64,000 nt of DNA. Source: a virus. The stretch lies in the IMG/VR virus record IMGVR_UViG_3300023174_000061, one strand, 5' to 3'. Below, piece by piece: positions 12,884-62,392 of this stretch. The position numbers and the translations under genes are program-made. Numbering within the stretch: the stretch's first letter is position 1; each line of letters starts with the position of its first letter. The notes under the pieces were generated by a model that saw only the letters and a program-made list of their open reading frames with translations, searched no databases and was not told the origin of the DNA.

Positions 12884-13954
12884 ATGAAAACTTTTCAGGA
12901 ATTTATTTTAGAATCACATTGCAATAGCAGTCCAAAGGGAATAAACTGCCCATCACACGGAAGTGTAAAGTGTCCTAAAGTAAAATCACACAAAACAGTT
13001 GAAGCAATTGCGAAGAAGCATCGTATGGAGGTCTCTGATATTCAAAGGCAACTTGATATGGGAATTCCTATTGAGCACGAGCATACAAAAGATAAAGCAT
13101 TAGCAACTTATATTTCTCTTCAGCATCTTGATGAAATACCAGATTATTATACTCGTCTCAAGAAAATGGAAGCAAGTGCGAAAAAGGAACACAAGAAGTT
13201 TAAAGATGTAAAGGAAACAGTTACAATTGAAGATGCAAATGGAAATACATTTTTAGAAATTATTGATTTAATTAAACCAGAAAGAATGAAAGGTATTAGT
13301 GAAGGAACAAAATCTGGTGATACATCTCTCCACGATTGGTTTACAAAAAGCAAATCAAGTGATGGAAAACCAGGATGGATTCAGTTGGGAGGTAGATATG
13401 CAGGCAAACCTTGTGCGAAACAACCAGGACAAAATACTAAACCAAAATGTGGTTCATCAAAAATGGCTGCAAATATGTCTGATGATGAAGAAAATGCAGC
13501 AGCAAGAAGAAAAAGAAAAGAAGACCCAAATCCAGATAGGTCAGGACAAGCAAAAAATGTTAAGACCGAAGAATTTGTAAATGAGGATGCCTGCAAAGAA
13601 AAAGTAAAGTCTCGTTATAGAATTTGGCCTAGTGCTTATGCTTCTGGAGCAGTTGTAAAATGTCGTAAAGTTGGTGCTTCAAATTGGGGTAATAAAAGTA
13701 AAGATGTAAAAGAAGGGTATACACGGATACAGTCTCGTGGGTCTACTTATAGTATTATGTTAAATTGGAGAGGAAAATATCTTTCAGTTCAAATGTTTTT
13801 CCCACAATTTGCTAGACCTCCAAAAGATCAGGTCACTTTTGAAGTAAGAAAGATTTATCCTGGCGCAATTGTATTATCATATAATCCATCAATAAAAGAT
13901 CCAACAAAACCATTATTGTTTACAGGAGATGAAAATGAATCCAGACGACATTAA
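12884..13954 (+). CDS. Modular basic protein, putative capsid-internal polyprotein (includes a DUF5661-like HEHT..LQHLDEIPDYYTRL module)
   Basis: Begins MKTFQEFILE, close to the T4 internal-protein capsid targeting sequence MKTYQEFIAE. Modules are separated by [IV]xE sites. CTAAATA at 12862. Confidence 0.6.
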   Translation: MKTFQEFILESHCNSSPKGINCPSHGSVKCPKVKSHKTVEAIAKKHRMEVSDIQRQLDMGIPIEHEHTKDKALATYISLQHLDEIPDYYTRLKKMEASAKKEHKKFKDVKETVTIEDANGNTFLEIIDLIKPERMKGISEGTKSGDTSLHDWFTKSKSSDGKPGWIQLGGRYAGKPCAKQPGQNTKPKCGSSKMAANMSDDEENAAARRKRKEDPNPDRSGQAKNVKTEEFVNEDACKEKVKSRYRIWPSAYASGAVVKCRKVGASNWGNKSKDVKEGYTRIQSRGSTYSIMLNWRGKYLSVQMFFPQFARPPKDQVTFEVRKIYPGAIVLSYNPSIKDPTKPLLFTGDENESRRH

Positions 13955-14111
13955 ACTAGAAAATCTTTCTAAGATTTTTGAATATGAAAGAATTTCTAGA
14001 GAAATTGATTCTTGTGAAGATGTAGAACTTTTGAAGAATATATCAAAATCTTATGTGAAACTTTACTTTAAACAACAAGAAACAGTCGCAAGTATGTCTA
14101 TTAATTTATGA
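13935..14111 (+). CDS. Small two-helix protein, possibly NblA-like
   Basis: 58 aa with RBS AGGAG upstream. Pattern L..L...FE......ID......L......Y..L...QQ resembles the NblA helix-loop-helix. The family call is tentative. Confidence 0.4.
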   Translation: MNPDDIKLENLSKIFEYERISREIDSCEDVELLKNISKSYVKLYFKQQETVASMSINL

Positions 14112-15757
14112 TTGAAAAACATTATAAGGGCAATCCGAATTTAAAAGCGGAAAATGTCAAGATTGAATTTACAACAGACCAAATTCAAGAATATCTAAAA
14201 TGCAAAGATGATCCAATTTATTTTGCAAAGAATTATGTAAAGATTGTTTCTTTGGATCACGGTTTAATGCCTTTTGAGATGTATGATTTTCAGGAAGAAT
14301 TAATTACAAACTTTCACGAAAATAGATTTAATATTGCAAAACTTCCTAGACAGACAGGAAAATCAACAACTGTTGTATCGTATCTTCTACATTACGCACT
14401 TTTTAATGATAATATAAGAATTGCAATTCTAGCAAACAAAGCAGCAACTGCAATAGAACTTTTAGGTAGATTACAACTGTCTTATGAGAATTTACCAAAG
14501 TGGTTGCAGCAGGGTGTTGGTTCTTGGAACAAAGGTTCGTTGGAACTTGAAAATGGTTCTAAAATCGTAGCAGCATCCACATCATCATCTGCTGTTCGAG
14601 GAAATTCTTTCAATATTATTTTCTTGGACGAATTTGCGTTCATTCCAAATCATATTGCAGAACAATTTTTCTCTTCTGTGTATCCTACTATTTCTTCAGG
14701 TCAAAGTACAAAGGTTATTATCATCTCAACTCCTAATGGGATGAATATGTTTTATAAACTTTGGCACGATGCCGAAAGAGGAAAGAATGGTTATATTCCA
14801 CTTGAAGTTCATTGGTCTGCTGTGCCTGGAAGGGACGCAGAGTGGAAACGACAAACAATTGCGAATACTTCTGAACGACAGTTTACACAAGAATTTGAGT
14901 GCGAATTCTTGGGGTCTGTTGATACTTTAATTACTCCATCCAAACTTAGAATGATGGTTTATGATGATCCACTTACTAGGAGTAAAGGATTAGATGTATA
15001 TGAAGATCCAAAAGAAAAAAATACCTATTTAATGACGGTAGATGTATCTCGTGGGATGAGTAATGATTACTCTGCATTTATTGTATTTGATATTAGTCAA
15101 TTCCCATATAAAGTAGTTGCAAAATATCGAAACAATGAAATAAAACCTATGCTTTTCCCAAATATTATTTACGATGTAGCGAAAGCATACAATAAATCAT
15201 TTGTTCTCGCAGAAGTAAATGATATTGGAGAACAAGTATCAAGCATACTTCATTTTGATTTGGAATACGATAATATTTTGATGTGTTCAATGAGGGGAAG
15301 AGCAGGACAAATGGTCGGCCAAGGATTTTCTGGAAAGAAAACTCAACTTGGAATTAAAATGTCCAAAACTGTTAAAAAAATTGGTTGCTCTAACTTAAAA
15401 ACAATTATTGAAGACGATAAGTTAGTCATTAAAGATTATGATATTATTAGTGAGTTAACAACTTTTATTCAAAAAAGTCAATCATTTGAAGCAGAAGAAG
15501 GATGTAATGACGACCTTGCAATGTGTCTTGTTATTTTTGCTTGGTTAGTCGTTCAAGATTATTTTAAAGAAATGACGGACAATGATGTTCGTAAAAGAAT
15601 ATATGAAGATCAAAAAGACCAAATAGAACAAGATATGGCTCCATTTGGTTTTATGTCTGATGGATTGAGTGAAGACACATCATTTGTTGATAATGATGGT
15701 GATAGGTGGCATTTGGATGAGTATGGAGATAGATCTTATATGTGGGAGTATCATTAG
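14108..15757 (+). CDS. gp17: Terminase large subunit gp17
   Basis: Walker A PRQTGKST, Walker B IIFLDEFAF, ISTPNG, nuclease VDVSRG and DDLAM. Confidence 0.97.
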   Translation: MIEKHYKGNPNLKAENVKIEFTTDQIQEYLKCKDDPIYFAKNYVKIVSLDHGLMPFEMYDFQEELITNFHENRFNIAKLPRQTGKSTTVVSYLLHYALFNDNIRIAILANKAATAIELLGRLQLSYENLPKWLQQGVGSWNKGSLELENGSKIVAASTSSSAVRGNSFNIIFLDEFAFIPNHIAEQFFSSVYPTISSGQSTKVIIISTPNGMNMFYKLWHDAERGKNGYIPLEVHWSAVPGRDAEWKRQTIANTSERQFTQEFECEFLGSVDTLITPSKLRMMVYDDPLTRSKGLDVYEDPKEKNTYLMTVDVSRGMSNDYSAFIVFDISQFPYKVVAKYRNNEIKPMLFPNIIYDVAKAYNKSFVLAEVNDIGEQVSSILHFDLEYDNILMCSMRGRAGQMVGQGFSGKKTQLGIKMSKTVKKIGCSNLKTIIEDDKLVIKDYDIISELTTFIQKSQSFEAEEGCNDDLAMCLVIFAWLVVQDYFKEMTDNDVRKRIYEDQKDQIEQDMAPFGFMSDGLSEDTSFVDNDGDRWHLDEYGDRSYMWEYH

Positions 15758-15775
15758 CAGATAAGGTTAGTAATT

Positions 15776-15783
15776 TATAAATA
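15776..15783 (+). promoter_or_regulatory. T4-type late promoter upstream of gp18
   Basis: TATAAATA, intergenic. Confidence 0.8.
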
Positions 15784-15822
15784 CTTCTAGGCAAAAATGA
15801 ACTTCTTCACGAGGGGAAACAG

Positions 15823-20667: not shown

Positions 20668-20820
20668 ATGGATGAATTAATGGATATGATTTTAACTGAC
20701 CAATCCCCTGCGGAAGTCAGTGATAAGATTAAAGAAATTCTTTTTGCTAAATCAGCAGAAAAAGTTGATGCTGTAAGACCAGAAGTTGCCGCAAGTCTTT
20801 TTGGTGATGTTGAGGATTGA
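20668..20820 (+). CDS. Small acidic protein at the gp67 position (prohead core-like, 50 aa; below ORF-track cutoff)
   Basis: MDELMDMILTDQSPAEVSDKIKEILFAKSAEKVDAVRPEVAASLFGDVED; follows the late promoter TATAAATA at 20634-20641. Confidence 0.65.
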   Translation: MDELMDMILTDQSPAEVSDKIKEILFAKSAEKVDAVRPEVAASLFGDVED

Positions 20821-22633: not shown

Positions 22634-23188
22634 ATGTCCGTATATAAGATTGTACAAAAGATTACACCATTGACAATGACTGGTGCAGCAGTAACCAGCA
22701 ATCCAATTGCTTTGAGGTCTGGTTTTTTGAGAATTGTTCCAGAACAAGATGCTTATGTTGAGGTTGCTCCAACTCCAACGATTAGCACTTCTACAAGTGC
22801 TAGCATTTTTGTTAAAGCAGGAACTGAACTTGTATTAAAAGAAACAGCAATTACTCAAACTATTGTTGGTGTTACTACTGGTACTACTACTATTGTAACT
22901 TTACCAGAAGGTACTTTCTCTGATTTTTCTGCTGGTGATATTGTTGAACTTACTGGTGTTGTTCCAGCAGGTATTAACACAACAGCAGCAACCGTTGCTT
23001 CAGTAAATGCAACAAACAGTGCGGGAACAGGTGGATTTAACAGAGTAATTACTCTTACTTGGAATACTTCAACTCAAGGTGCTCTAATCACTACTTCCAC
23101 TGGTGTTTTGAGAAGAACAACAAAAGTTGCTGCTTATGGAGCAAGTGGAAAACTCCACATCACAGAAATTCAAATCGCAGGTGGTTAA
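22634..23188 (+). CDS. Conserved hypothetical head-region protein (184 aa)
   Basis: CTAAATA upstream; terminal LHITEIQIAGG; directly precedes gp21. Confidence 0.6.
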   Translation: MSVYKIVQKITPLTMTGAAVTSNPIALRSGFLRIVPEQDAYVEVAPTPTISTSTSASIFVKAGTELVLKETAITQTIVGVTTGTTTIVTLPEGTFSDFSAGDIVELTGVVPAGINTTAATVASVNATNSAGTGGFNRVITLTWNTSTQGALITTSTGVLRRTTKVAAYGASGKLHITEIQIAGG

Positions 23189-23192: not shown

Positions 23193-23843
23193 ATGAAACT
23201 TATCACAGAAGAAATCGAAAAGGTTAAAGTTATTGTTGAAGAAACCAACGGTAAAAAGTCTCTTTTTATTGAAGGTATTTTTCTTCAAGCAAATAAACCA
23301 AATAGAAACAAGCGTCTCTATGAAATGAGAACTCTCGAAAGAGAAGTCAAAAGATATAATGAAAATTATATTCAAAAGGGCCGTGCTCTTGGAGAACTAG
23401 GTCACCCTGATGGTCCTTCTTTAAACCTTGATAGAGTTTCTCATAAAATTGTTTGCTTAGAGAGAGTTGGAGATAATTTCAAAGGAAGAGCAAAAATTCT
23501 TTCCACTCCTATGGGAAAAATTGCAGAATCTCTTCTTGGTGAAGGTGTGATGTTGGGTGTTTCTTCTCGTGGTGTTGGTTCATTAATTCCAACTAACGAA
23601 GGATATTCAGTAGTTGGTGAAGACTTTATGCTTGCGACTGCTGCTGATATTGTTGCTGACCCTTCTGCTCCTGATGCTTTTGTGAACGGAATTATGGAAG
23701 GAAAAGAGTGGTGTTGGGAAGGTGGAATTCTCCGTGAAAAAGCAGCAGAAGCAGCAAAGAGAAAAATAAACGCATTAGTAGATCAAAAACGTTTGGACGA
23801 ACAGAAAGTTGATCTGTTCCAGAACTTTTTATCAAATCTTTAA
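23193..23843 (+). CDS. gp21: Prohead core scaffold protease gp21
   Basis: Start MKLITEE; ALGELGHP, VSHKI, GVSSRGVGS, DIVADPSAPDAFV motifs. Confidence 0.95.
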   Translation: MKLITEEIEKVKVIVEETNGKKSLFIEGIFLQANKPNRNKRLYEMRTLEREVKRYNENYIQKGRALGELGHPDGPSLNLDRVSHKIVCLERVGDNFKGRAKILSTPMGKIAESLLGEGVMLGVSSRGVGSLIPTNEGYSVVGEDFMLATAADIVADPSAPDAFVNGIMEGKEWCWEGGILREKAAEAAKRKINALVDQKRLDEQKVDLFQNFLSNL

Positions 23844-23891: not shown

Positions 23892-25106
23892 ATGTCCCGT
23901 GGTAAAAACTTACAAGAAATGGAAACAGGCACTAAACAATCTAAAACTGCTGTAAATGCTGGTGCAAAAGCAGCAGATCCAATGCAGAAGTTAACCACAG
24001 GCATTCCTGATGGTCAAACTGGTAGTTGGGAAGATCTTGGAGGACCAACTCCAGAGAACTACAAATCAGATGATGATTCTGCAAAACTTGCAATTCCTGG
24101 TGCAACTCTTAAGCAAGTTAAGAATGTTGTAAACAAGGGTGCAAAAGCAGCAGATGCTATGAAGACTCTTTCTAAAGAATCAGTCGAAGAAGATGAGGAC
24201 GAAGAACTCATCGAAGACGAGGCTGAGTATGATGAAGATGAAGTAGTTTCTGAAGCAAAGAAAAAGTCTTCCAAAGAAGATGAAGAGGGTGAAGATGAAG
24301 AGGGTGAAGATGAAGATAGTGAAGAAGATGATGAAGAGGACAAAAAAGAAAAAGCAATGAAAGAGGCATTTGCCCAAATCGAAGAAGAAATCGAAGAGGA
24401 CGTAAATGCACTTCTTTCTGGTGAAGAACTCTCCGAAGATTTTAAGGTAAAAGCAAAAACAGTTTTCGAAGCTGCTTTAAATGCAAGAACCGAACAAATC
24501 GAAGAAGCAATCGTTCATCAATACGAGCAAAGACTTTCGGAAGAAGTAGAAGCAATTAAAGAAGAATTAACTGACCGTCTTGATGCATACCTTGAGTATG
24601 TGTCAGAAGAGTGGTTGCAAGAAAATGCTCTTGAAGTAGAGCAAGGACTTAAGACCGAAATGACCGAATCATTCCTTCAAGGAATGAAGGGTCTTTTTGA
24701 AGATCATTATGTAACAATCCCTGAAGATAGATATGATGTACTTGAGAGTATGGTAGAAAAACTTGATGAAATGGAGAATAAACTCAACGAGCAAATCGAT
24801 AAGAATGTTGCTCTTAATAGAAGATTAGCAGAGTCGGTTACTGAAGTAATCTTTGCCGAAGTCTCTGAAGGTCTTGCACTTTCACAGAAGGATAAACTCG
24901 CTTCTCTTGCTGAAAATGTTGAGTTTGATAGTGAAGGTAGCTATCGTGAGAAACTGGTAACGTTAAGGGAATCATATTTCCCTAGAAACACTGGTACTCA
25001 AAGAGACAACTCGGATTATATCGCAGAAGAAACTGATTATTCGCAACCAGTATCTGGTTCGATGTCTAGATATCTCGATACACTCCAAAGAGTTTCTAAA
25101 AAGTGA
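23892..25106 (+). CDS. gp22: Prohead core scaffold protein gp22
   Basis: Very acidic coiled coil; ELSEDFK.KAKTVFEAA, YLEYVSEEW motifs; lies between gp21 and gp23. Confidence 0.93.
   Translation: MSRGKNLQEMETGTKQSKTAVNAGAKAADPMQKLTTGIPDGQTGSWEDLGGPTPENYKSDDDSAKLAIPGATLKQVKNVVNKGAKAADAMKTLSKESVEEDEDEELIEDEAEYDEDEVVSEAKKKSSKEDEEGEDEEGEDEDSEEDDEEDKKEKAMKEAFAQIEEEIEEDVNALLSGEELSEDFKVKAKTVFEAALNARTEQIEEAIVHQYEQRLSEEVEAIKEELTDRLDAYLEYVSEEWLQENALEVEQGLKTEMTESFLQGMKGLFEDHYVTIPEDRYDVLESMVEKLDEMENKLNEQIDKNVALNRRLAESVTEVIFAEVSEGLALSQKDKLASLAENVEFDSEGSYREKLVTLRESYFPRNTGTQRDNSDYIAEETDYSQPVSGSMSRYLDTLQRVSKK
24276..24320 (+). repeat. 15-nt tandem repeat in gp22 (EDEEG x2 plus a degenerate copy)
   Basis: GAAGATGAAGAGGGT x2 followed by GAAGATGAAGATAGT. 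Confidence 0.7.
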
Positions 25107-25156: not shown

Positions 25157-26590
25157 ATGCAAATGTTCAACGCAGAACATCTGCAGGAGAAGTGGGCACC
25201 ACTCCTTGACTATCAGGGACTTGATGGAATCAAAGATTCACATCGTAGAATGGTAACCGCAGTTCTCCTGGAGAATCAAGAGAAATTCCTTCGTGAGGAA
25301 AGAGAATTCCTTGGCGAAGCATCATATAGTGGTTCAACTACTAGTAGTGCTGGTTTTGGTGGTGGATATGGTGCTAGTGGAAACGCAGCAGCTGGTCCAG
25401 TTGCAGGTTTCGACCCTGTTCTAATCAGCTTAATCCGTCGTTCAATGCCTAACTTGGTCGCATATGACCTCGCAGGTGTTCAACCAATGAACGGTCCCAC
25501 AGGACTCATCTTCGCAATGCGTTCACGTTATACCAGTCAATCAGGTGCTGAAGCATTCTTCGATGAAGTTGATACTCAGTTCTCTGGAAGAAAGGGAACT
25601 CAAACCCAGTATGCTGTTGATCCTACTATTGAAGCAAACGTAGGTTTCGGTACTACTGCTTCACAAACTGGTAGCAACCCCGGTCTTCTGAATGCTGTTG
25701 GTACTGCTGGTACTTCCTACAACGTAGGTGGTGGTATGGCTACCTATGATGCAGAAAGACTTGGTGCATCAGGTTCTGAAAGTTTCAACGAAATGGCATT
25801 CTCAATCGAGAAAGTCACCGTTACTGCAAAGTCAAGAGCACTCAAGGCTGAGTATTCATTAGAGCTCGCACAAGACCTCAAGGCAATTCATGGTCTGAAT
25901 GCTGAAGCGGAATTGGCAAACATTCTCTCAACTGAGATTCTTGCTGAAATCAACCGTGAAGTTATTCGTACCATCTACAAGACTGCTGAAGCTGGTGCTC
26001 AGTTCAACACTGCTACTGCTGGTACTTTTGACCTTGACGTTGATTCCAACGGTCGTTGGTCGGTTGAGAAATTCAAAGGTCTTATCTTCCAAATCGAGCG
26101 TGATGCTAACGCAATCGCACAAAGAACTCGTAGAGGAAAAGGCAACATCATCATGTGTTCTTCGGATGTTGCTTCTGCACTTTCGATGGCTGGTCTTCTT
26201 GACTACACCCCTGCACTCAATGCAAACCTTAACGTAGACGATACTGGCAATACTTTTGCTGGTGTTCTTAACGGTAAGTATAAAGTTTATATCGACCCAT
26301 ATTCGGGTGGTGCTGGTAACCCAGCAACTGGTGCAACTGGTGGTCAGTACTATGTTGTCGGTTATAAGGGTTCTTCCCCTTATGATGCAGGTCTCTTCTA
26401 TTGTCCTTATGTTCCTCTCCAAATGGTTCGTGCCGTTGGTGAGAACACCTTCCAACCAAAAATTGGCTTTAAGACCCGTTATGGTCTTGTTGCTAACCCA
26501 TTTGCAGAAGGTAAAACACAAGGTCTTGGTCAAATTTCGACCAACTCAAACCGTTACTACAGAAGAGTACAGGTTTCTAACCTTATGTGA
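25157..26590 (+). CDS. gp23: Major capsid protein gp23
   Basis: FDPVLISLIRR, GVQPMNGPTGLIFAMR, TAKSRALKAEYS.ELAQDLKA.HG, FQPKIGFKTRYG motifs; putative maturation site FLGE|A. Confidence 0.99.
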   Translation: MQMFNAEHLQEKWAPLLDYQGLDGIKDSHRRMVTAVLLENQEKFLREEREFLGEASYSGSTTSSAGFGGGYGASGNAAAGPVAGFDPVLISLIRRSMPNLVAYDLAGVQPMNGPTGLIFAMRSRYTSQSGAEAFFDEVDTQFSGRKGTQTQYAVDPTIEANVGFGTTASQTGSNPGLLNAVGTAGTSYNVGGGMATYDAERLGASGSESFNEMAFSIEKVTVTAKSRALKAEYSLELAQDLKAIHGLNAEAELANILSTEILAEINREVIRTIYKTAEAGAQFNTATAGTFDLDVDSNGRWSVEKFKGLIFQIERDANAIAQRTRRGKGNIIMCSSDVASALSMAGLLDYTPALNANLNVDDTGNTFAGVLNGKYKVYIDPYSGGAGNPATGATGGQYYVVGYKGSSPYDAGLFYCPYVPLQMVRAVGENTFQPKIGFKTRYGLVANPFAEGKTQGLGQISTNSNRYYRRVQVSNLM

Positions 26591-46656: not shown

Positions 46657-46684
46657 TGAATAAATAACTAAAAATACCATATAA

Positions 46685-47743
46685 ATGAAAAGTTTTGCTA
46701 GATTTATCAAAGAAGCAGTAGAAACACTTGCGTCTACTGAGGCAAAGACACGCGGACTTAAAGGAGACGGTCACGGTGATTGGTATGATAGTCAGGGAAA
46801 TCTTGTAGCAAAAACTGTAGGTGGAAAGTTAAAATATTTCGGTCAAGGTGGTGCTGATACTCAACAGCAACAAGGAGCAAAGAAACAAGCAGGAGCACAA
46901 CAGCAACAGGCAGCACCACAACAACAAGCAGCACAGCAACAGCAACCAGAAGCAGAGCAGGTCAATGGTGTTGCGATTGTGATTGGAAGATTTAATCCTC
47001 CATCTAAAAATCACGGAGCATTATTGAAAGCAGGATATTCGCAAGCAACTCGAAGAAAATTTGAGTTTAGAGTTTATCCAAGTCGTATTGAAGATGGAGC
47101 AACAAATCCACTTAATCCAGGATTAAAGATTTCTTATATACAATCAATGTTCCCAGAGTATGCGGAATATATTGTAGATAGTAATAAAACAAAAACTATT
47201 TTTGATGTTTTGGGTTCTGTGTATGATGATGGATATACTGATGTTGTAATTGTGACGGGACAAGATAGACTTGGAGAATTCCAAAGTTTAGTTCACAAAG
47301 GAGACGGACAACAATATCAGTTTAATAATATTGAGGTAGTCCCATCTGGTGTAAAGGACCCTGATAGTGATGTTGAAAGTCCTGGTTCTTCTGCGATGAT
47401 GAGAACAGCAGCAGCAACAGGAGATTATGAAAGATTTGCTACTGGACTTCCAACAAATATGGATACCGCAGAGAAACAGGAAATGTTTAATACCGTTTCT
47501 CGTTCAATGAAAGTAACTGAAGACACTGAGATTTGGAAGATTGCTCCAGAAATGGATTATGAGGGAATGCGATGGAATTATAAGAAGAATGGATTATTTG
47601 ATGTTGGTGCTTTGGTGGAAAATTTAAATAGTGGATTGGTTGGAAGAATTCTTCGTAGGGGAGCAAATCATTTAATTTGTGTAACAAAAGAAGGTGTGAT
47701 GTTTAAGAGTTGGTTGAAAGATGTTCGTGAACTTTACGAATAA
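46685..47743 (+). CDS. Cytidylyltransferase-like (HIGH-superfamily nucleotidyltransferase) with CTS-like N-terminus and poly-Q linker
   Basis: IGRFNPPSKNH (degenerate HxGH), V.G.DR..EF, SSA.MR.AA motifs; N-terminus MKSFARFIKEA. Confidence 0.75.
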   Translation: MKSFARFIKEAVETLASTEAKTRGLKGDGHGDWYDSQGNLVAKTVGGKLKYFGQGGADTQQQQGAKKQAGAQQQQAAPQQQAAQQQQPEAEQVNGVAIVIGRFNPPSKNHGALLKAGYSQATRRKFEFRVYPSRIEDGATNPLNPGLKISYIQSMFPEYAEYIVDSNKTKTIFDVLGSVYDDGYTDVVIVTGQDRLGEFQSLVHKGDGQQYQFNNIEVVPSGVKDPDSDVESPGSSAMMRTAAATGDYERFATGLPTNMDTAEKQEMFNTVSRSMKVTEDTEIWKIAPEMDYEGMRWNYKKNGLFDVGALVENLNSGLVGRILRRGANHLICVTKEGVMFKSWLKDVRELYE

Positions 47744-47778
47744 GATAAATACCAATAGGAAAAAAGTATCTAAGTAAA

Positions 47779-49248
47779 ATGAGACCTTGGAACGAAATTA
47801 TTACGGAAGCAAGAGATAGAAATAAAGAAAAGGCAGAAAGACAAAGAAGATTGGGAATTGCTAAAACCAATCTGAAAGGTTCTGCTGCTTTAAATAAAGG
47901 TAAAAAAACAAAAAAAGAAAAGTATGGACCTGGTGATCCTCATTTTGATTTAGCAAGAGATAGAGAAGATAGAAAAAAGAAACAACTTAAATTCTCTATA
48001 AAACAATCTAAAAAAAATGCGGAGGAAAAGAAAAAGAAGCAATTAGAGGATCTCAAAAATAAACCCAGACAAGCTGCAAGTGCTGCTCTTTCTGATGTTA
48101 AATCACAATCGATCTCATATAGAGATAGTGATGCGACTGCTTATACGAAGGCAGTTGGAAATGTAGCATCTCTTGCTGGTGGAATTGCGAAAGCAGGAAT
48201 TGGTTATGCTGTAGCAAGACACCAAGCAAAAAAAGCAGCAGCAGAAGCAGAAAAAAGTGATGGAGCAAGTAAAATACCAAAGAAGAAACCTAAAAAAAGT
48301 GGTCCTTTAGGTGGTAGACCTCCTGGTAGTCGTCCAACTGCTCCTGCTGGTGGTCCAACTCCTCCTGTTGGTGGTCCAACTCCTCCTGTTGGTGGTCTTG
48401 GAGTAAAACCAAGAAAGAGATTGGTCCCATCAACTAAAAGACTTCCACCTGCTGGTGGTGGTAAATCATTAGGACAACAAGCAAGAGAAAATCCAGAATT
48501 GAGAAAAAAATTAATCAATCAACGTAATGAAGAATATTCAAATTGGAAAGAAGAGTTTATTTTTGAAGTTGAAGATAAAACTGATAATAAAAAAGAAAAG
48601 AAAAAAATTATTGATGTAATGCCATCAAATAAAACAAATGGAGTTGAACTCAACCCAAATATGAAAGAGGAAAAGGACCAAGAAGGTGGAATGGCTCATA
48701 ATGAACTTGCTACAATGGAAAGAGCAGTCAAAACTCTTCGTAAAAAAATAAAATCTCCAAATCAACAACTTCCTGCTTGGGTTCAATCTAAAATCTCAAA
48801 AGCAGTAGACCATATTGATAGTGTTGCTGATTATATGTCTGGTGAAACTGAACCTGTTACAGAAGAATGTGGATGTGATGATGGTGAAAAAAAAGTTCTT
48901 GCAATGATGATTATTAAAAAAGCAGTGGATGCAAAGAAGAAAAAGAACTCTCAATTGAACTCGGGAATTATTGGTGAAGCAAAAACTGCTGCTTGGCAAC
49001 GTAAAGAAGGTAAAAATCCAGAAGGTGGATTAAATAAAGCAGGTATTGCTTCTTATCGTAGAGAAAATCCTGGTTCAAAACTTTCAATGGCGGTTACTAC
49101 AAAACCATCAAAACTTGACCCTGATAGCAAATCGGCAAAACGCAGAAAGTCTTTCTGTGCTCGTATGGGTGGAATGCCTGGTCCTATGAAAGATGAAAAA
49201 GGTCGTCCAACAAGAAAAGCATTATCTTTGAGGAAGTGGAATTGTTGA
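47779..49248 (+). CDS. Modular Lys/Pro-rich protein with C-terminal DUF6321-like module; putative capsid-internal polyprotein
   Basis: MRPWNEIITE|A start; AWVQSKISKA module; AAWQRKEGKNPEGGLN...RRKSFCARM...LRKWNC. Confidence 0.6.
   Translation: MRPWNEIITEARDRNKEKAERQRRLGIAKTNLKGSAALNKGKKTKKEKYGPGDPHFDLARDREDRKKKQLKFSIKQSKKNAEEKKKKQLEDLKNKPRQAASAALSDVKSQSISYRDSDATAYTKAVGNVASLAGGIAKAGIGYAVARHQAKKAAAEAEKSDGASKIPKKKPKKSGPLGGRPPGSRPTAPAGGPTPPVGGPTPPVGGLGVKPRKRLVPSTKRLPPAGGGKSLGQQARENPELRKKLINQRNEEYSNWKEEFIFEVEDKTDNKKEKKKIIDVMPSNKTNGVELNPNMKEEKDQEGGMAHNELATMERAVKTLRKKIKSPNQQLPAWVQSKISKAVDHIDSVADYMSGETEPVTEECGCDDGEKKVLAMMIIKKAVDAKKKKNSQLNSGIIGEAKTAAWQRKEGKNPEGGLNKAGIASYRRENPGSKLSMAVTTKPSKLDPDSKSAKRRKSFCARMGGMPGPMKDEKGRPTRKALSLRKWNC
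48334..48396 (+). repeat. 21-nt tandem repeat x3 encoding PT(A/P)P(A/V)GG
   Basis: CCAACTCCTCCTGTTGGTGGT x2 preceded by CCAACTGCTCCTGCTGGTGGT. Confidence 0.8.
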
Positions 49249-50595: not shown

Positions 50596-50967
50596 ATGAG
50601 ATTTGATGAATTGAATGAAGATAATTATCTCTTATTTGCTATTAAATATTATGATAATCCACAATCTGTAACCAAAGATGATTTTTATGAGGACTTAAAA
50701 AGGTTCAAGTGGATAAAAAGATTATTGAAGAGACATAAAACAACGGGTGAGTTAAATGCTCACCTTTTGATTAATCATTTTATTATTCTTTATAATGTAT
50801 TTGGTGATGCAGCAACACCTTTATTGTTTTATAAAATAGATAGTGAGTTTTGGAGTATTATAAAAACTTTTGTAGTTTATCTTGGAAGATTGCCTGAAGT
50901 TCCAAAAACTAAAATTCATAATATTCCAATTGATATAGAATGTTTAGAACAACTTAATTTAATCTAA
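50596..50967 (+). CDS. Conserved T4-like cyanophage hypothetical protein
   Basis: FAIKYYDNP, F.EDLKRFK.IKRLL, L.NH.I.LYNVFG motifs. Confidence 0.75.
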   Translation: MRFDELNEDNYLLFAIKYYDNPQSVTKDDFYEDLKRFKWIKRLLKRHKTTGELNAHLLINHFIILYNVFGDAATPLLFYKIDSEFWSIIKTFVVYLGRLPEVPKTKIHNIPIDIECLEQLNLI

Positions 50968-56074: not shown

Positions 56075-56099
56075 GAGGGGTTTCGACCCCTCTTTTTTT
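56075..56099 (+). terminator. Intrinsic terminator after nrdB, abutting late promoter TATAAATA (56099-56106)
   Basis: GAGGGGT-TTCG-ACCCCTC followed by T7. Confidence 0.85.
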
Positions 56100-56128
56100 A
56101 TAAATAAAAAAAAGTATTGTTTATTCAT

Positions 56129-57538
56129 ATGTCTGGAATTTCTAAGTTCAAACGAATTTACAGTGAAGGTGTTGCAGCAGAGCATCCAGATATTGCAGGG
56201 CAGAAAGAATTTGCGAATAAGGCAGATGAAATTTTAGCAAGAAGAAAAAAAGATAGAGCACAAAGTGGAAAAAATGCTAAACTAGATGCTATTGGAAGAA
56301 AGTTATATAATATGAATAAAATTGGAGAAGAAACTGAACTTGGTGAAGCACATTGGGACCCAGCAACCAAAACAATTAGTGATAAGAAAAGAACTGGAAC
56401 TGACCCAGAAATTCAAAAAATGGCTGCAAAAGCAGCAGCATCTGGACCAAAGAAAAGAAAACCACTTGGTTCAGTTCGTAAGAATAGTGCAGACTTTAAA
56501 CCTTCCTCACCAGAGCAAGCAAAGTCAGATATGAAGAGTTGGGATAGATATTGGGAAGGTTCTTGGAAGAATAAGAAAATGAATGAAAAGATTGATGTAG
56601 GTGCTGATGCTGGTGCGACAATCAGTGATTTCGTACATTCAAAAAGCAAAACTTTTAAGGGTGATAGTAAGAAGCAAAGAATTAAGAGAGCACTTGGTGC
56701 TTATTATGGAGCACAAAAAGAAGAAACAGAAAACATTTATGATTATGTAATTGAAGCATTAGTTGATGCTGATTTCGCACAAGATTATGAGACTGCTGAA
56801 AATATGTTTGAGTGTATGAGTGATGAATTTGTAGCAGTTATTTTTGAAGAATATATTGAAGAGAAGGCAAGAGGAACTAGACCAAAAAGAACAGTTCACG
56901 CATATGATGTGGATGAGACTTTATTCGGTCACGGCAAGAAAGGAAAACCAAACGTTCAGGTTCACGTAAAAGACGCATCTGGAAAAAGAGTTCAAAGTTT
57001 AAGCAATCAAGAGTTTAATACTCATAAACTTGATAAAGCTAAGGGACATTCTTATGATTTTAGTGAGTTTCAAAGTGCTAAAAAGTTTAAGGAAACTTCA
57101 AGTCCAAATAAAAAAGTAATCAAAGACGTTAAAAGAAAACAAGCAAGAGGACAAAACGTTCATATAATTACTGCTCGTTCAAAGTTTGATAAACCAAGTG
57201 AATTCCAAGGACATTTGAAGAAGCACGGTATTGATGTTCCTATGAATAAAATTCATTATACTGGTGGAATGAAAGGTAGTGATATTGGAAAGAAAAAAGT
57301 AGATGTTGCAAATGCAGTTGCAAAGCAGAGTGGTGCTAAAACAACTCATATGTATGATGATGCTGCAAAAGTTCATAAGGCATTTGAGAAAGAGAAAAAG
57401 AACAAACCAACTTCGGCAAAAATCAAAACTCATATGGTTGCACCAGACAAAAAGGGAGAAACTAAAGTTCGTTCTTATCAAGCAACAAAAAATGAAGAGA
57501 TGACTTCCTATGACTACTGGAAGCAATTTGTAGATTGA
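56129..57538 (+). CDS. Modular protein with C-terminal HAD-superfamily phosphatase domain; putative capsid-internal polyprotein
   Basis: HAD motif I YDVDETLF, motif II IITARS, motif IV MYDD; basic modules and an acidic spacer upstream. Confidence 0.65.
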   Translation: MSGISKFKRIYSEGVAAEHPDIAGQKEFANKADEILARRKKDRAQSGKNAKLDAIGRKLYNMNKIGEETELGEAHWDPATKTISDKKRTGTDPEIQKMAAKAAASGPKKRKPLGSVRKNSADFKPSSPEQAKSDMKSWDRYWEGSWKNKKMNEKIDVGADAGATISDFVHSKSKTFKGDSKKQRIKRALGAYYGAQKEETENIYDYVIEALVDADFAQDYETAENMFECMSDEFVAVIFEEYIEEKARGTRPKRTVHAYDVDETLFGHGKKGKPNVQVHVKDASGKRVQSLSNQEFNTHKLDKAKGHSYDFSEFQSAKKFKETSSPNKKVIKDVKRKQARGQNVHIITARSKFDKPSEFQGHLKKHGIDVPMNKIHYTGGMKGSDIGKKKVDVANAVAKQSGAKTTHMYDDAAKVHKAFEKEKKNKPTSAKIKTHMVAPDKKGETKVRSYQATKNEEMTSYDYWKQFVD

Positions 57539-57550
57539 TGGAGTAGGAAG

Positions 57551-57664
57551 ATGAATGAGGAGTTTCAAAAACCTCATAAAAAGAAAACTTTTTCTCAACA
57601 AGAGAAACTTTTGAAACTCCAAAAACTATTGAAAAAACTAGAAGACAAGAAGAAAAAAGAATAA
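57551..57664 (+). CDS. Tiny Lys-rich peptide (37 aa)
   Basis: MNEEFQKPHKKKTFSQQEKLLKLQKLLKKLEDKKKKE; GGAG/AGGA upstream. Confidence 0.4.
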   Translation: MNEEFQKPHKKKTFSQQEKLLKLQKLLKKLEDKKKKE

Positions 57665-57702
57665 ATAAGTATATAAAAGTACTTTTTACTGCTCCCAAGA
57701 AG

Positions 57703-59565
57703 ATGAATAAAAAAGATTTGGATGCTTTGAACGAGTTATATTCGAGTGTTTATAGTGGAGAGCAGTTAGATGAGGCTCCTGCACCTTGGGAAACAGAGGG
57801 GTTTCGGAAAAGTAATGCGGGAAAATTTGTTTCAAAAGTTTCAAATGCTGCCAGATCATTTGGAAATTATCTTGCTCCACCTGCTTCTGCATCTGCTAAT
57901 CCAAGTGTGAGAGCTGCGGCAGCAAGAGAAACTTCCGCAACAACACCTGCCAAGAAGATGGGATCTGAAGTTCCAAAAAGAATTTCACAGGCTCCAAGAC
58001 CCACAGCACTTCCACAAGCATCTACACCATCTACTGCACCAAGACCAGCAGCATCTTCAACTGTTCTTGCAAAACAAAAAGGAGTTGAAGGTAAGTTAGA
58101 TAAAGCAACTGGTAAGTTTACTGCTGGTGCGTTTAGTGGTGCAGAGAAGTCCCGTTATTCAAGTGTTGCTGTAAAAAATGCTGGAACACAATCTACAACT
58201 AATGATAAAGAAGCAAATATGGCAACGTGGGCAAAGGCAAATAAAAATATGATACAAAATGTTGGTACGTCATCCCAAAAAGCAATTCTTGCAAAATCAG
58301 AACCTTTAAAATCATTTACTACAAAACCACCTACTCCTGGTTCTGGTGCTCTTGCAAACGCAGTTACAACAGCAACAGCAAAACCACTTGATACTAATTT
58401 TAAATCTATAAATAATACAAAGCCCAAACCAACGACAATGACACAATCTTACGAATGGTCTTCTGCTAAAACTTTGAGAGATATTGCAGGTGCTTATAAT
58501 GAAATCTACGAAGCAAAGAAAAAAGTAGACCAAGATGAAGATGGTGATAATGACTTTGCGGATGTAAGAGTTGCAAGAATGATTGCTTCTGGTGTTCCCA
58601 AAGCAAAAGCAATTGCTATGGTGAAGAACAAATCTTATAATGAAGAAGTTGAACTTTGGGTAAATGAACTTTTAGAAGAAGGTTATGACCTAAGTGAATA
58701 TACTTGGGAAGATATGTTTGAGATTTATGAAGAAATTGAATATATTGAAGAAAGAGACGAAGGAAAACCAGGTTTGATGTTTAAGAAGATTGCTGCAAAA
58801 GCAGCAAAGAAATATGGTTCAAAAGAAGCAGGGAATAGAGTTGCTGGAGCAATTCGTAAGAAAGTTCTTGCGAATGAAGCAACTGCGATGACTAAGAGAG
58901 GTTATGATGAGACCGAAATTCGTAATAAGATTGCAAAATCAACAGGTGGTGGAAAATTTGCCGATAAAGCAACTGAATTAGAAAATAGACCAACTTTTGG
59001 AGATAAGTCAAAGCAAGCATCAAGAGAAAAACTTGCAAGAACGCAGAGAGGTGATTTCCGCAGAACAAATTCTTCTGATTATGGTCTTCGTTTGGGTGCT
59101 CATAAGTCCAATGATCCTGCCGTAAAAGCAAAGCAGGCAGCAAGAGGAAAGCAAAGAAGTCCTTTGACCCCTAAAGAGAAAAAGCAACTCAATAGAGAGG
59201 CATATGAAGCATACGAGTTTGTATCATCATATCTTCTTGAAAACAACTTCGCAACAACAGTTGATGACGCAAATGTAATTATCAACAATATGAGTGAGGG
59301 TTGGTTTGAAAGTATTATGGAAGAAAAGAAACCTCTTCCTATTGCTAAAATGAAAAGAAAAGAAACAAAATTTCTTGGTAGTGATGAAGAACACCTTGCA
59401 GCATTGAAGACACCTATGGGTTCTCCTGAAAGAAAAAAAGCAATGAAAAACCTTGAAAAATTTGATAATATCAATACAGCAAGAACAAGTATTTCAAAAA
59501 GAGGTGGAAAAGAACCACATCCAATGCCAGAAGTAGGTAGATATAAACCAAAATACGAAGATTGA
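57703..59565 (+). CDS. Modular basic/acidic protein (620 aa); putative capsid-internal polyprotein
   Basis: Alternating Ala/Lys/Pro-rich and acidic segments; LDE|A, IYE|A, IEE|R and IME|E junctions. Confidence 0.6.
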   Translation: MNKKDLDALNELYSSVYSGEQLDEAPAPWETEGFRKSNAGKFVSKVSNAARSFGNYLAPPASASANPSVRAAAARETSATTPAKKMGSEVPKRISQAPRPTALPQASTPSTAPRPAASSTVLAKQKGVEGKLDKATGKFTAGAFSGAEKSRYSSVAVKNAGTQSTTNDKEANMATWAKANKNMIQNVGTSSQKAILAKSEPLKSFTTKPPTPGSGALANAVTTATAKPLDTNFKSINNTKPKPTTMTQSYEWSSAKTLRDIAGAYNEIYEAKKKVDQDEDGDNDFADVRVARMIASGVPKAKAIAMVKNKSYNEEVELWVNELLEEGYDLSEYTWEDMFEIYEEIEYIEERDEGKPGLMFKKIAAKAAKKYGSKEAGNRVAGAIRKKVLANEATAMTKRGYDETEIRNKIAKSTGGGKFADKATELENRPTFGDKSKQASREKLARTQRGDFRRTNSSDYGLRLGAHKSNDPAVKAKQAARGKQRSPLTPKEKKQLNREAYEAYEFVSSYLLENNFATTVDDANVIINNMSEGWFESIMEEKKPLPIAKMKRKETKFLGSDEEHLAALKTPMGSPERKKAMKNLEKFDNINTARTSISKRGGKEPHPMPEVGRYKPKYED

Positions 59566-59651: not shown

Positions 59652-59685
59652 CTTATAAATAACTTGAATATTATTAGGGACCCGA

Positions 59686-60132
59686 ATGAGTTATGAAAAC
59701 CCTTGGTTATATCAAGGAAAAGTTTTTGAGACAGAAGATATTCAAGAGAATTTTGGATTTGTTTATTTGATAAGTTGTGAAGAAACTCAAAGAAAATATT
59801 TGGGAAGAAAATACTTTTGGTCTTTTAGAACACCAAAAGGAAAGAAAAGAAAAGTAAAACAAGAAAGTGATTGGAAAAATTATTATGGTTCTTGTCCTGA
59901 ATTAAAAGAAGACATAAAAAAACACGGAAAGGATAAGTTTCAAAGAACTATAGTGTCTCTTCATAAGACATTAGGCAAAACAAACTATGAAGAGACAAGG
60001 CAATTATTCTTAAATAACGTCCTGACGGAAGCACTTGACAGTGGAGTTCCTACGTATTATAATTCCAACATACTTTCAAGGTATTTTAGGAAGGATTACT
60101 TTAATGCGACTTCATATCAAGAAAATCTGTAA
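59686..60132 (+). CDS. Conserved GIY-YIG-like nuclease-domain protein
   Basis: GFVYLI.....RKYLGRKYF, ESDWKNYYGS, YYNSNI motifs. Confidence 0.7.
   Translation: MSYENPWLYQGKVFETEDIQENFGFVYLISCEETQRKYLGRKYFWSFRTPKGKKRKVKQESDWKNYYGSCPELKEDIKKHGKDKFQRTIVSLHKTLGKTNYEETRQLFLNNVLTEALDSGVPTYYNSNILSRYFRKDYFNATSYQENL
60035..60063 (+). promoter_or_regulatory. Perfect sigma70-type promoter inside the upstream ORF
   Basis: TTGACA-N17-TATAAT. Confidence 0.7.
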
Positions 60133-60298
60133 TGATACGATACAACAACATATTGATCGTATGCACGATTTGTGTGAAGAGGGTAGACCAAGAGATGCGG
60201 AATGTATCTATAGTGAAATCCGTGATTGGGTAATTCAAAAAGAAAATCTTGAAGTATTATCTCTCGATTATATCAGTGGAAACTTTTTAGATTTTTAA
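60104..60298 (+). CDS. Small hypothetical protein (64 aa)
   Basis: Start MRLHIKK with AAGGA RBS; directly downstream of the promoter at 60035. Confidence 0.6.
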   Translation: MRLHIKKICNDTIQQHIDRMHDLCEEGRPRDAECIYSEIRDWVIQKENLEVLSLDYISGNFLDF

Positions 60299-60325
60299 CC
60301 ATTTCTAAATACTGTGATATAATGT

Positions 60326-60467
60326 AAAAATCCATTTTTGGATTCCTATTATGAGTAGGTTTTAATATTATGAGAATTTGATTGTGAAAATTAGAGCCCA
60401 GGAAAGTGCCTCCCGAAAGGGTTGGTGTACCCCCTTTCTATTGGGATGTAGAATTCAGTAAAACTTA
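60326..60467 (+). ncRNA. Candidate structured 5' leader / cis-regulatory RNA of the lysozyme gene
   Basis: Follows TG-A-TATAAT (-10 at 60318-60323). GC-rich nested stems CCCAG-GAAAG/CTTTC-TA-TTGGG enclose TGCC-TCCC-GAAA-GGG-TT-GGTG. Confidence 0.45.
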
Positions 60468-61106
60468 ATGCAAAATTTCTTTACAGTAACCTTGCCCCTT
60501 TTGGCAGCGGTTACGACCAATACGGCAACATTGCCTGGTTTATTTCCTCCTCCCCCTGTCGGTGGTCCTCCACCGTTTTCTGTTATTAAGGAGTTTGAGA
60601 CCAAGACAACGACCAAAGAGGTTGTTCCCGAAAAGCCAAAAGAGAAAAGGTTAATTTGTAAAGGGTGTAATGAAAATGAAAATGTTGCCCTGAATTATTT
60701 TCAGGACATTGGAATTACAGATAAAAACGCCCTTGCTACTATCATGGGCAACATTAAACAGGAATCAACATTTCAGTCTAATGTTTGCGAAGGTGGTAGT
60801 AAAACCAGTTGGAGTAACTGCGGAGGTGGTTACGGACTAATTCAATTTACTTCTGCCTCTCGTTATTATGGATTGGGTGCATTTGCTAAAAAAATAGGAG
60901 GTAATCCTTCACATCTTCATACTCAACTTCGGTATATTTCTACTGAACCGCAGTGGAAAAATATTGAAAATGGAATGAAAGTTCCTGGTAAATCCATTAA
61001 TAGGTATATGAATTATGCATACAAATGGATTGGGTGGGGACACGCAGGTTCAAGAACTAATTATGCTTATGACTATGCTAAAAGATTAGTTCTTGCTAAT
61101 GCCTAA
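60468..61106 (+). CDS. Phage tail-lysozyme-like peptidoglycan hydrolase with N-terminal signal-like segment
   Basis: ALATIMGNIKQES, GYGLIQFT motifs; hydrophobic N-terminus and Pro-rich linker. Confidence 0.75.
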   Translation: MQNFFTVTLPLLAAVTTNTATLPGLFPPPPVGGPPPFSVIKEFETKTTTKEVVPEKPKEKRLICKGCNENENVALNYFQDIGITDKNALATIMGNIKQESTFQSNVCEGGSKTSWSNCGGGYGLIQFTSASRYYGLGAFAKKIGGNPSHLHTQLRYISTEPQWKNIENGMKVPGKSINRYMNYAYKWIGWGHAGSRTNYAYDYAKRLVLANA

Positions 61107-61148
61107 ATAACTTTACCTGACTTGTGTGGTAACTTTTCGGGTATGATT

Positions 61149-61172
61149 GGAGTGTTTCGGCACTCCTTTCTT
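61149..61172 (+). terminator. Hairpin/terminator after the lysozyme gene
   Basis: GGAGTG-TTTCGG-CACTCC followed by TTTCTT. Confidence 0.6.
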
Positions 61173-61206
61173 GTATAAATAGTAATACCACACAAGTTAG
61201 AGTAGT

Positions 61207-61857
61207 ATGAAACACTTTTATGTCTATTATTCCTATGAGGAATATGGAAGAGGTTATATTGGAAAAAGAGAATGCAGTTGTCTTCCAGAAGAAGATGTAA
61301 GTTATTTTGGAAGTTTTCACGATAAAATTTTCAACCCAACTCAAAAAATTATTTTAGAAACTTTTGATAGTGTAGAAGAGGCACTTGAAGCAGAATGTGC
61401 TCTTCATAATTTTTATGAGGTAAATAAAAATCCACACTTTGCTAATAGAGCAAAACAAACTTCTACTGGATTTTATTGTAATAAAGGACCAAGTAAAGAA
61501 GCAAACAAAAAAAGAAGTGAGTTGATGAAAACAGAATATAATCCTATGAGTAATCCAGAACTTAAAGAGAAAGCAAAAAAAAATTTGATTAAGACTTTGA
61601 GTAATCCAGAAATTAAAAAGAAAAAAAGTATAAGTGGAAAATTAGCACACAATCAACCAGAAGTAATTGAGAAACATAGACAGGCAGCAATCAAATCCCA
61701 TCAAAATCCGGGAACAAAAAGGAAACATATTGAGGCAAAACTTGGTGAGAAAAATCCTTGTTATGGTAAAAAATGGATTACGAATGGAAATGAAAACAAA
61801 TATATAAATGCTACTGATAAGGTTCCAGATGGTTTTCGGTATGGTAGAGTTTTATAA
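61207..61857 (+). mobile_element. Free-standing GIY-YIG (Seg-like) homing endonuclease
   Basis: YVYYSYEEYGRGYIGKR...YFGS, AN.AKQT, NUMOD-like basic repeats, NP.YGKKWITNG; own TATAAATA at 61174-61181. Confidence 0.85.
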
Positions 61858-61879
61858 ATAACTAAAAAGTATTAGTAAA

Positions 61880-62392
61880 ATGGACGCACAAGAACTTCGC
61901 AATCTTCAAGAAGCATATATGGAAGTTGTTATGAATGAAAATACTTCAGATAAATTGGCAGCAAAAGCAAAACAAGTTGCACAATCTACTACTTCATCTC
62001 TATCAAGACAAGAAGTGTATCGACTTCTTTCTTTAAAAGCAAAAAAACGTGCTTCTGGAGGTACTCCAGTTGAACGAGGAAAACTTAGAAGAAAAGTATC
62101 TTCTGTACCTCAGGCGGATTTTGATAGTGATTTGAGTAGAAGTGGATTAACACAATCTAAGAGAGATGAAAGAAGATATACATCAGGAGCATCTATTGGT
62201 CCTGGTGGAATAACTAAAAACCGCAAGAAACTTCGTAAGCAAAAGGTTATGGGAGAATTTGGAGAACAAGCAGACATCTACGACATCATCCTCTCACACT
62301 TACTTGATGAGGGTTATGCCGAAACACCAGAAGCAGCAGAAGCAATTATGGTGAATATGAGTGAAGAGTGGAGAGATAGTATTGTTGGGTAG
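61880..62392 (+). CDS. Basic protein flanked by acidic helices; putative capsid-internal protein
   Basis: MDAQELRNLQEAYMEVVMNE, an Arg/Lys-rich core, and a C-terminal acidic module; TATAAATA at 61853-61860. Confidence 0.6.
   Translation: MDAQELRNLQEAYMEVVMNENTSDKLAAKAKQVAQSTTSSLSRQEVYRLLSLKAKKRASGGTPVERGKLRRKVSSVPQADFDSDLSRSGLTQSKRDERRYTSGASIGPGGITKNRKKLRKQKVMGEFGEQADIYDIILSHLLDEGYAETPEAAEAIMVNMSEEWRDSIVG

Follow-up and report, generated by a model that had tools for sequence, protein, structure and literature searches.

IPI, IPII and IPIII, internal proteins of phage T4, and its packaged enzyme Alt carry a 10-residue N-terminal leader, the capsid targeting sequence (CTS), which reads MKTYQEFIAE (PMC8442874). 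According to CTS genetics residues 4 and 7 serve targeting and residues 8 and 10 processing, and an Asp at position 10 blocks processing (PMC9026906). Reviews already suggest that the CTS lets T4-like phages load varied proteins (PMC9026906). Here we analyse a DNA of 64,000 nucleotides from a T4-like cyanophage (nt; IMG/VR record IMGVR_UViG_3300023174_000061), in the following called the window, in which six late-type genes, named by their start positions 12884, 46685, 47779, 56129, 57703 and 61880, probably make up an expanded modular head-cargo system of the T4 internal-protein kind.

As in the four T4 proteins, three of the genes (12884, 46685 and 47779) begin with a 10-residue leader having the same functional positions, and expression would be late. 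Moreover an S77 protease and a gp22 scaffold are present in the genome, the presumed cut site is a Glu with Ile or Leu at P3, a constant leader stands before hypervariable, mostly basic cargo, and enzymes would be packaged as with Alt. In contrast, T4 internal proteins are single small proteins with one cut, whereas several precursors here consist of four to seven shuffled modules, each preceded by a cut motif. Additional features are two more leader classes and an acidic module that is portable, and P3 is Val or Met as often as Ile or Leu. An NMNAT-like enzyme and a HAD-like phosphatase are found among the putative cargo, and the bodies show no sequence homology to those of IPI-III. A preliminary description of this DNA had called the system far more elaborate than IPI-III, which is fair for architecture and cargo diversity, while the underlying principle (CTS and gp21) is the known one of T4. 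What exceeds T4 is the polyprotein format together with the additional leader classes and the acidic module.

Other described systems are similar in part. Polyvalent proteins (Iyer et al. 2017, PMC5512222) likewise consist of several shuffled domains, their packaging and delivery along with the DNA is assumed, and proteolytic domain release was proposed there too. An ART-PolyVal domain is located behind the same leader in an environmental contig. However, polyvalent proteins are large, with enzymatic or anti-defence domains and often their own peptidase, whereas the modules here are basic DUFs of 35-90 residues without a peptidase in cis, for which we propose cutting in trans by the prohead protease, directed by a defined motif. 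The set of 2-15 effector or enzymatic domains, commonly with a peptidase in cis, that characterises polyvalent proteins is missing from our modular proteins. A Pfam scan of the four modular proteins returned DUF5661 and DUF6321 only, plus the DUF5872-like module, and neither a peptidase nor a classical effector domain; the ESM Atlas contributed the labels DUF5872 and DUF6321 only.

The inner-body or ejection proteins of phiKZ-like giant phages (phiKZ, 201phi2-1 and SPN3US), which depend on an S80 protease, are comparable as numerous head-internal propeptide proteins with multiple cuts after Glu and with conserved N-termini on diverged paralogues (PMC5694885). They differ by a small P3 residue (S/A/G), by propeptides of often >100 residues and by having no T4-type 10-residue leader, and the proteins are unrelated. 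Their pattern ([S/A/G]-x-E, S80) is not the one seen here: [AGST]xE is not enriched at the junctions between modules (26-45% versus 57-85% for [ILVM]xE), the protease is of the S77 type, and P3 is V, I, L or M by construction of the motif. The T4 core proteins gp22, gp67 and gp68 are also cut many times by gp21, with some peptides staying inside, and the acidic segments described here are also motif-dense. Those proteins are parts of the scaffold and act in assembly, whereas the genes considered here are hypervariable accessory cargo without homology to them, and the window has its own gp22. Among the papers accessible to a literature search, none was found to link a capsid targeting sequence to cyanophages.

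In the mechanism we propose, the six genes would be transcribed late from T4-type late promoters. Their N-terminal leaders, three of the T4 CTS type (M-[KR]-x-[FW]-x-x-[FI]-[ILV]-x-E) and two other classes on the remaining three genes, would dock the precursors on the gp22 scaffolding core during prohead building. Subsequently gp21 (S77) would cut after the Glu of [ILVM]-x-E and take off the leader; in precursors built like beads on a string it would also separate the modules at disordered linkers. Short acidic pieces would exit the head. The basic modules (DUF5661, DUF5872-like, DUF6321 and others) would remain with the DNA, as would the NMNAT-like nucleotidyltransferase and the HAD-like phosphatase, presumably entering the next cell. 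We infer docking, every cleavage, head retention, ejection and the roles of the modules; that the modules serve DNA charge neutralisation or early protection is a guess. In T4, the basic internal proteins stay, whereas the head expels the leader after its cleavage and most of the scaffold fragments. The predicted cuts would here yield short peptides from the acidic parts and basic fragments with an isoelectric point (pI) of 10-11, mirroring the expelled and the retained pieces.

The leaders of 12884, 46685 and 47779 (class I) match the T4 CTS at all four functional positions, and the leader of 12884 is identical to it in 8 of 10 residues. When all six frames of the window were scanned with the pattern M[KR]x[FYW]xx[hydrophobic][ILVFM]xE, only these three out of 1065 candidate starts matched, compared to 0.065 expected. 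Within the family of 46685, the members of which were selected by body homology only, M1, K2, F4, F7, E10 and A11 are near-invariant, position 8 is I, L, F or V, and positions 3, 5 and 9 vary; this type of leader is kept down to 42% identity. Among orthologues of 47779 MR[PT]W[NK]EIIxE is constant in front of at least six unrelated bodies of 353-785 amino acids (aa). Class I leaders also occur in the cultured phages S-RIM2, P-SSM7 and S-SM2, whereby the GC119 protein of P-SSM7 begins with MKTYSQFIEE.

A second scan covered IMG/VR with a deliberately narrow pattern (MKTFx[QE]FIxE, with AAA as Lys codon). It gave at least 132 matches, nearly all at starts of open reading frames (ORFs), corresponding to at least 111 unique complete ORFs in at least 61 unrelated body clusters. 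Among the matches listed, the bodies contain Pfam domains as different as ART-PolyVal, Tox-ART-HYD1, Zeta_toxin/AAA_33, GNAT, Glucosaminidase, DPBB_1 with LysM, CTP_transf_like and HNH. ADP-ribosyltransferases, a Zeta-toxin-like kinase and peptidoglycan hydrolases are thus represented.

In other cyanophages the class I leader is furthermore associated with virus particles. A relaxed class I pattern, applied to six frames of 171 of the 175 kb of S-CREM2, finds exactly five leader ORFs, namely gp6 (S-adenosylmethionine (SAM) hydrolase), gp13, gp14 (APH-like kinase), gp136, whose gene follows that of the small terminase subunit, and gp154 (cytidylyltransferase). Each of the five belongs to the published virion proteome, which comprises 52 of 221 proteins (hypergeometric p ~6e-4). 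Enzymes of the GC190 type, to which the product of 46685 belongs, are reported in virions of S-SM1, S-SCSM1 and S-CREM2. In S-SM1 the cytidylyltransferase (T4-GC190) was detected by Sullivan et al. 2010 (PMC3037559), and cytidylyltransferase/NMNAT-like proteins are recurrent in cyanophage virions (PMC3037559, PMC9602691). Database notes label GC119, the type of 12884, as structural. The S-CREM2 proteome paper does not mention N-termini or targeting, and neither this paper nor the one on S-SCSM1 decides between cargo and carry-over for such enzymes. The preliminary description had regarded the six leaders as one family that targets proteins to the head. The T4 type is confirmed for 12884, 46685 and 47779, and head targeting is supported for this class, since T4 functional positions are kept, bodies swap and homologues occur in virion proteomes; 56129, 57703 and 61880 carry other leaders, so that there are three classes in all.

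For the internal junctions we turned to homologues of the modular proteins. A phmmer search with the 12884 product yielded 6569 representatives at 50% clustering. Hidden Markov models were built for six modules, B (DUF5661), D, E (DUF5872-like), F, G and H (DUF6321), which are arranged in 51 architectures among 155 proteins. We counted [ILVM]xE within 16 residues upstream of distinct internal module starts and compared the result to composition-preserving shuffles. The motif precedes 339 of 431 internal module starts (79%) versus 132 +/- 8.6 in shuffles (31%), a difference of ~24 standard deviations (sd). After collapsing contexts with at least 50% identity, 175 of 223 still have the motif versus 76 +/- 6.6 shuffled (15 sd). 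Module boundaries in homologues do coincide with [ILVM]xE, a point on which the preliminary description had staked its reading beforehand.

The position and composition of the motif are equally constrained. It stands at fixed offsets before the module start, at -9 for D (55 of 123), at -4 for F (48 of 73) and at -3 or -1 for H, and [ILVM]xD is present in only 3-20% of junction contexts. At P3, V, I, L and M follow one another by falling frequency; a polar residue occupies P2, and E, A or G prevail at P1'. Only 7-8% of the internal sites have aromatic residues at P4 and P7, which are the targeting positions in the leader. Hence these sites keep the processing determinants only and not those for targeting, and the idea that they are fossil leaders was rejected for the same reason. 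According to an AlphaFold2 model, the 12884 product consists of confident domains (DUF5661 and module F >90), whereas the predicted local distance difference test (pLDDT) falls below 50 at residues 130-143, 227-232 and 274-276, near E140, E234 and E277 and thus at three of the four internal junctions; E111 is located outside such segments.

The same Glu offset recurs where modules exist in other contexts. In a class I leader fused straight to module D (MKTFADFINE/SKSGD..., the slash marking the predicted cut), the Glu is at the same offset as in ISE140/GTKSGD of 12884. Stand-alone module genes have their Met1 at the offset of the P1 Glu, +/- one residue; pelagiphage HTVC034P, for instance, starts with M-AKTPLWQRK compared to IGE/AKTAAWQRK in the 47779 product. 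DUF6321 has a gene of its own in T7-like pelagiphages, with 81-83 residues. As the same modules are separate tiny genes in these phages, the polyprotein format would be an adaptation to loading by CTS and gp21. In HTVC168P (L259:2236-2737) three tiny, extremely basic genes are located between the scaffold and capsid genes. One of them is DUF6321, a second one (MAKRGLYANIHAKRKR...) resembles the body of P-SSM7 GC119, and the stretch examined has no annotated gp21-type protease.

The remaining three genes carry leaders of two other classes. The class II leader of 57703, present in a shorter form in 61880, is a helix of 20-27 residues with the pattern M-N-x-x-D-L-x-x-L-x-x-L/A-Y-x-x-V-Y...L-x-E. 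The class III leader of 56129 reads MSGxxKFKR[IF]Y[ST]E/G. In all three classes the leader is constant among relatives while the sequence right after the terminal Glu is replaced. Conversely, the AAEHPDIAGQKEF body of 56129 is found under three different leaders in related loci (L125, L124 and L066). An acidic two-helix module of 41 residues, internal or C-terminal, is common to 56129, 57703 and 61880 and occurs in 99 ORFs of related loci, and it is also present behind module E in class I-type polyproteins (P0185, P0212).

The architecture of the six genes is given in Table 1. All six translations begin exactly as the preliminary description had quoted them, and each of the internal x-x-E sites it listed, as well as FLGE/A of gp23, is present. 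Its view of most of the genes as strings of highly basic modules is valid for several precursors but not for 46685, whose product has a pI of 6.0 and no internal module junctions; here a cut is predicted from the sequence at the leader junction only. The internal class II leader of 57703 corresponds to the N-terminus of separate genes in three related loci (L112, L123 and L124), and 57703 therefore consists of fused leader-cargo units. The AlphaFold2 model of the 61880 product, based on a 7-row alignment, is of low confidence (pLDDT 56) and shows helical ends and a disordered core only.

TAAATA, which was claimed to be just upstream of each gene, is found for all six, 21-41 nt 5' of the start. 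The fuller NATAAATA motif is located 25-42 nt 5' of five of the six, while 12884 has TCTAAATA only. Judged as consensus match alone, all six putative cargo genes possess a predicted late promoter of the gp55 type. Within the window ATAAATA occurs in 25 copies on the + strand and in none on the - strand; 16 of the 25 are located <=60 nt 5' of gene starts, those of sheath, portal and scaffold among them. The copies are mostly found 15-46 nt 5' of late-type genes.

Several observations weigh against a head-cargo system with cutting at each motif. The junction contexts share ancestry, and the shuffle statistics therefore treat them as more independent than they are. In the six proteins of the window the enrichment of [ILVM]xE is modest, with 45 sites versus ~31 expected. 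As this count is unconvincing alone, the junction case rests on the homologues. Within the modules [ILVM]xE is enriched in H, depleted in D, F and G, and not depleted in B; as the picture is mixed, we did not use depletion within modules as support for selection against cutting. None of 8 B-to-G junctions (...SVK/DEEYS...) shows the motif, which sets this module pair apart from all others, and modules B and G may stay joined. The conserved terminal IxE of the acidic module often precedes only a Gly and the stop codon (...IME-G-stop), hence a conserved motif is not always a cut site. No virion proteome links class II or III leaders to particles, and the class III leader has Tyr at P3 and thus a non-canonical end (Y-S-E). 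Orthologues of 12884 in S-P4, S-SRM01 and DSL-LC02 have no leader; in S-SRM01 and DSL-LC02 a leader sits on the gene that follows. Finally, a Foldseek search of the 12884 model against the PDB gave no match at E <= 0.001, and fold searches provided no module function.

Some of these observations would be expected if the proteins were packaged but not diced. The leaders would then load them and maybe be removed, while the multi-module proteins stay whole like polyvalent effectors, the junction motifs being inherited linkers or remnants of fusions. Unprocessed multi-domain packaged effectors are known, e.g. N4 vRNAP (PMC5512222), a cut would make no sense at some of the conserved IxE motifs, and modules B and H tolerate internal motifs. 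We nevertheless consider this unlikely: the internal sites keep only the hydrophobic P3 and the P1 Glu without the aromatic P4/P7 of the leader, Glu rather than Asp is required, the motif is there whichever module precedes, its offsets equal the natural N-termini of stand-alone genes, and the sites are found in predicted disordered linkers. A different function is conceivable for 56129, 57703 and 61880 only. Their class II and III leaders and the acidic module could be constant ends for recombinational cassette exchange, or act in oligomerisation or assembly elsewhere, in which case these genes need not be head cargo. Unrelated cores between constant N- and C-terminal ends and the swapping of leaders on one body fit such a role, as do the missing link to virion proteomes and the unusual end of class III. 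However, all three genes are preceded by late promoters, the class II leaders end with a canonical L-x-E directly followed by hypervariable sequence, the architecture resembles class I in combining basic cores with acidic pieces rich in cut motifs, and the acidic module itself is shared with class I-type polyproteins. We thus hold it for quite improbable that the three genes stand apart from the cargo.

Chance or composition, finally, is strongly disfavoured. It would imply that, the phage being AT-rich and its proteins rich in Glu and Lys, short amphipathic N-termini and a weak three-residue motif merely imitate leaders and cut sites, and that detections of the homologous enzymes in virions are carry-over of abundant late proteins. 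[ILVM]xE is indeed a weak motif (~1.7 expected per 100 linker residues), its enrichment within the window is modest, and contamination was raised by the authors of the proteome papers themselves. But chance hardly accounts for three leader matches in the window versus the 0.065 expected, for the presence of all five S-CREM2 leader ORFs in the virion set, for a junction enrichment that remains at 15 sd after collapsing, or for at least 61 unrelated bodies behind one exact leader.

If the cargo system is real, it has implications beyond this locus. 'Non-structural' enzymes (NMNAT/cytidylyltransferase, SAM hydrolase, kinase) were detected by several laboratories in purified cyanophage particles and pose the puzzle of cargo or contamination, and a T4-type leader on precisely these proteins would supply a mechanism. 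The injected proteome of ocean T4-like phages would become predictable from sequence if the leader rule holds true, and the predicted cut sites can be checked in existing virion mass-spectrometry data. Moreover, both a biogenesis and a location could plausibly be assigned to >6500 clusters (50% identity) of modules related to or comprising DUF5661, DUF6321 and the DUF5872-like type. T4-like cyanophages are among the most abundant marine viruses. For these phages in general we see about even chances that a sequence-readable head-cargo programme is at work, in which a few short leaders load late proteins, a three-residue motif directs the protease cuts, and each particle takes to the next host its own kit of enzymes and small basic DNA-associated proteins, which is customised and shuffled rapidly.

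The window carries a T4-like morphogenesis and replication block with terminase, sheath, portal, gp21, gp22, gp23, UvsW, gp55, gp43 and others, and all its long ORFs are on the + strand. Its closest relatives on the DNA level are Kyanoviridae cyanophages (P-SSM2, S-SRM01) with an identity of only 73-78%; close kin with a protein identity of 92-97% is frequent among environmental viral contigs. The protease belongs to Peptidase_S77 (2.6e-34) and matches the structure of T4 gp21 (5JBL) at 3e-27. gp22 contains 27 [ILVM]xE sites versus 14.6 expected. The propeptide site of gp23 (REFLGE/ASYSG) provides with L-x-E/A a reference for the protease specificity within this genome.

Table 1. Positions of the putative cargo genes, their late-promoter-like motifs and the head genes presumed to act on them (window coordinates; ranges without unit in the remarks are aa)
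Feature	Position (nt)	Strand	Remarks
Gene 12884	12884-13954	+	Polyprotein-like late gene, T4-GC119 type, directly 3' of the terminase small subunit gene; leader I aa 1-10 (nt 12884-12913), Cys-rich 11-31, module B/DUF5661 32-111, small beta unit 112-140, module D 141-234, module E (DUF5872-like) 235-277, module F 278-356; junctions E10/S, VKE111/T, ISE140/G, VNE234/D, VKE277/G
Gene 46685	46685-47743	+	NMNAT/cytidylyltransferase-like enzyme, T4-GC190 type; leader I MKSFARFIKE/A (nt 46685-46714), conserved 45-aa adaptor domain aa 11-55, then a linker rich in Gln, the catalytic domain and a small domain at the C-terminus
Gene 47779	47779-49248	+	Late gene; leader I MRPWNEIITE/A (nt 47779-47808), long basic low-complexity body 11-263, module G 298-362, IGE400/A, module H/DUF6321 401-489 (nt 48979-49245)
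Gene 56129	56129-57538	+	Late gene; ATG start four codons within a TTG-started ORF; class III leader MSGISKFKRIYSE/G (nt 56129-56167), AAEHPDIAGQKEF segment, LGE73/A, basic 74-153, MNE153/K, acidic two-helix module 196-245 ending YIEE/K (IEE245/K), very basic C-terminal HAD/PNK-phosphatase-like domain 246-469 (weak PHROG match)
Gene 57703	57703-59565	+	Late gene; class II leader 1-24 ending QLDE/A, basic core 25-249, second internal class II leader 250-270 (IYE270/AKKK), acidic stretch to IEE350/R, basic 351-497, acidic module 498-540, basic tail
Gene 61880	61880-62392	+	Small cassette; class II leader 1-20 ending VMNE/N, disordered basic core 21-126 (pI 11.1), C-terminal acidic two-helix module 127-170
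Late-promoter-like TCTAAATA, for 12884	12861-12868	+	Weakest among the six
Late-promoter-like AATAAATA, for 46685	46659-46666	+	
Late-promoter-like GATAAATA, for 47779	47744-47751	+	
Late-promoter-like TATAAATA, for 56129	56099-56106	+	
Late-promoter-like AATAAATA, for 57703	57660-57667	+	
Late-promoter-like TATAAATA, for 61880	61853-61860	+	
gp21-type prohead serine protease (Peptidase_S77)	23193-23843	+	Presumed processing enzyme
gp22-type scaffolding core protein (T4_CASP, 8e-77)	23892-25106	+	Presumed docking partner of the leaders
gp23 major capsid protein	25157-26590	+	Propeptide site FLGE54/A (nt 25307-25321)

Some further observations concern the class I leader. On the IMG/VR contigs L171 (6505-9422), L221, L176, L192 and L200 we found tandem arrays of 2-4 genes which share MKTF(K/R)QFIxE and have unrelated bodies. 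Such arrays recall the hyperplastic internal-protein locus of T-even phages. Directly behind the class I leader of 46685 there is a domain of ~45 residues (window 46715-46849) with the pattern A..AK..GL.GDGHG.W.D..G..VAKT..GKLKF. It stands behind this leader type in enzymes of quite different kinds, namely our cytidylyltransferase and, in S-CREM2, the virion kinase gp14 and the Cas9-like nuclease gp12, and is also present at the related loci L143, L170, L184 and L239. Perhaps this domain serves these proteins as a second common element for packaging or as an adaptor. S-CREM2 gp12 has a leader-like LRFASFMAE/A at residues 17-25.

The conserved ORF 50596-50967 (MRFDELNEDNY..., T4-GC198) has a start with a superficial likeness to a short leader but is not counted, as the virion proteome of S-CREM2 does not include the homologue gp159. 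Two ORFs interleaved with the cargo genes, 59686-60132 and 61207-61857, have a late promoter in front and no leaders. Between portal and protease, where T4 has gene 67, there is an acidic ORF of 50 residues (20668-20820) that is preceded by a late-promoter motif of its own; its counterpart in S-CREM2 (gp142) is not among the virion proteins. The protease ORF has two open ATGs, at 23136 and 23193, of which the latter (MKLITEEIE...) agrees with the S-CREM2 homologue. This start puts an I-T-E site at residue 6 of the protease, similar to the LIE-9 site noted for T4 gp21.

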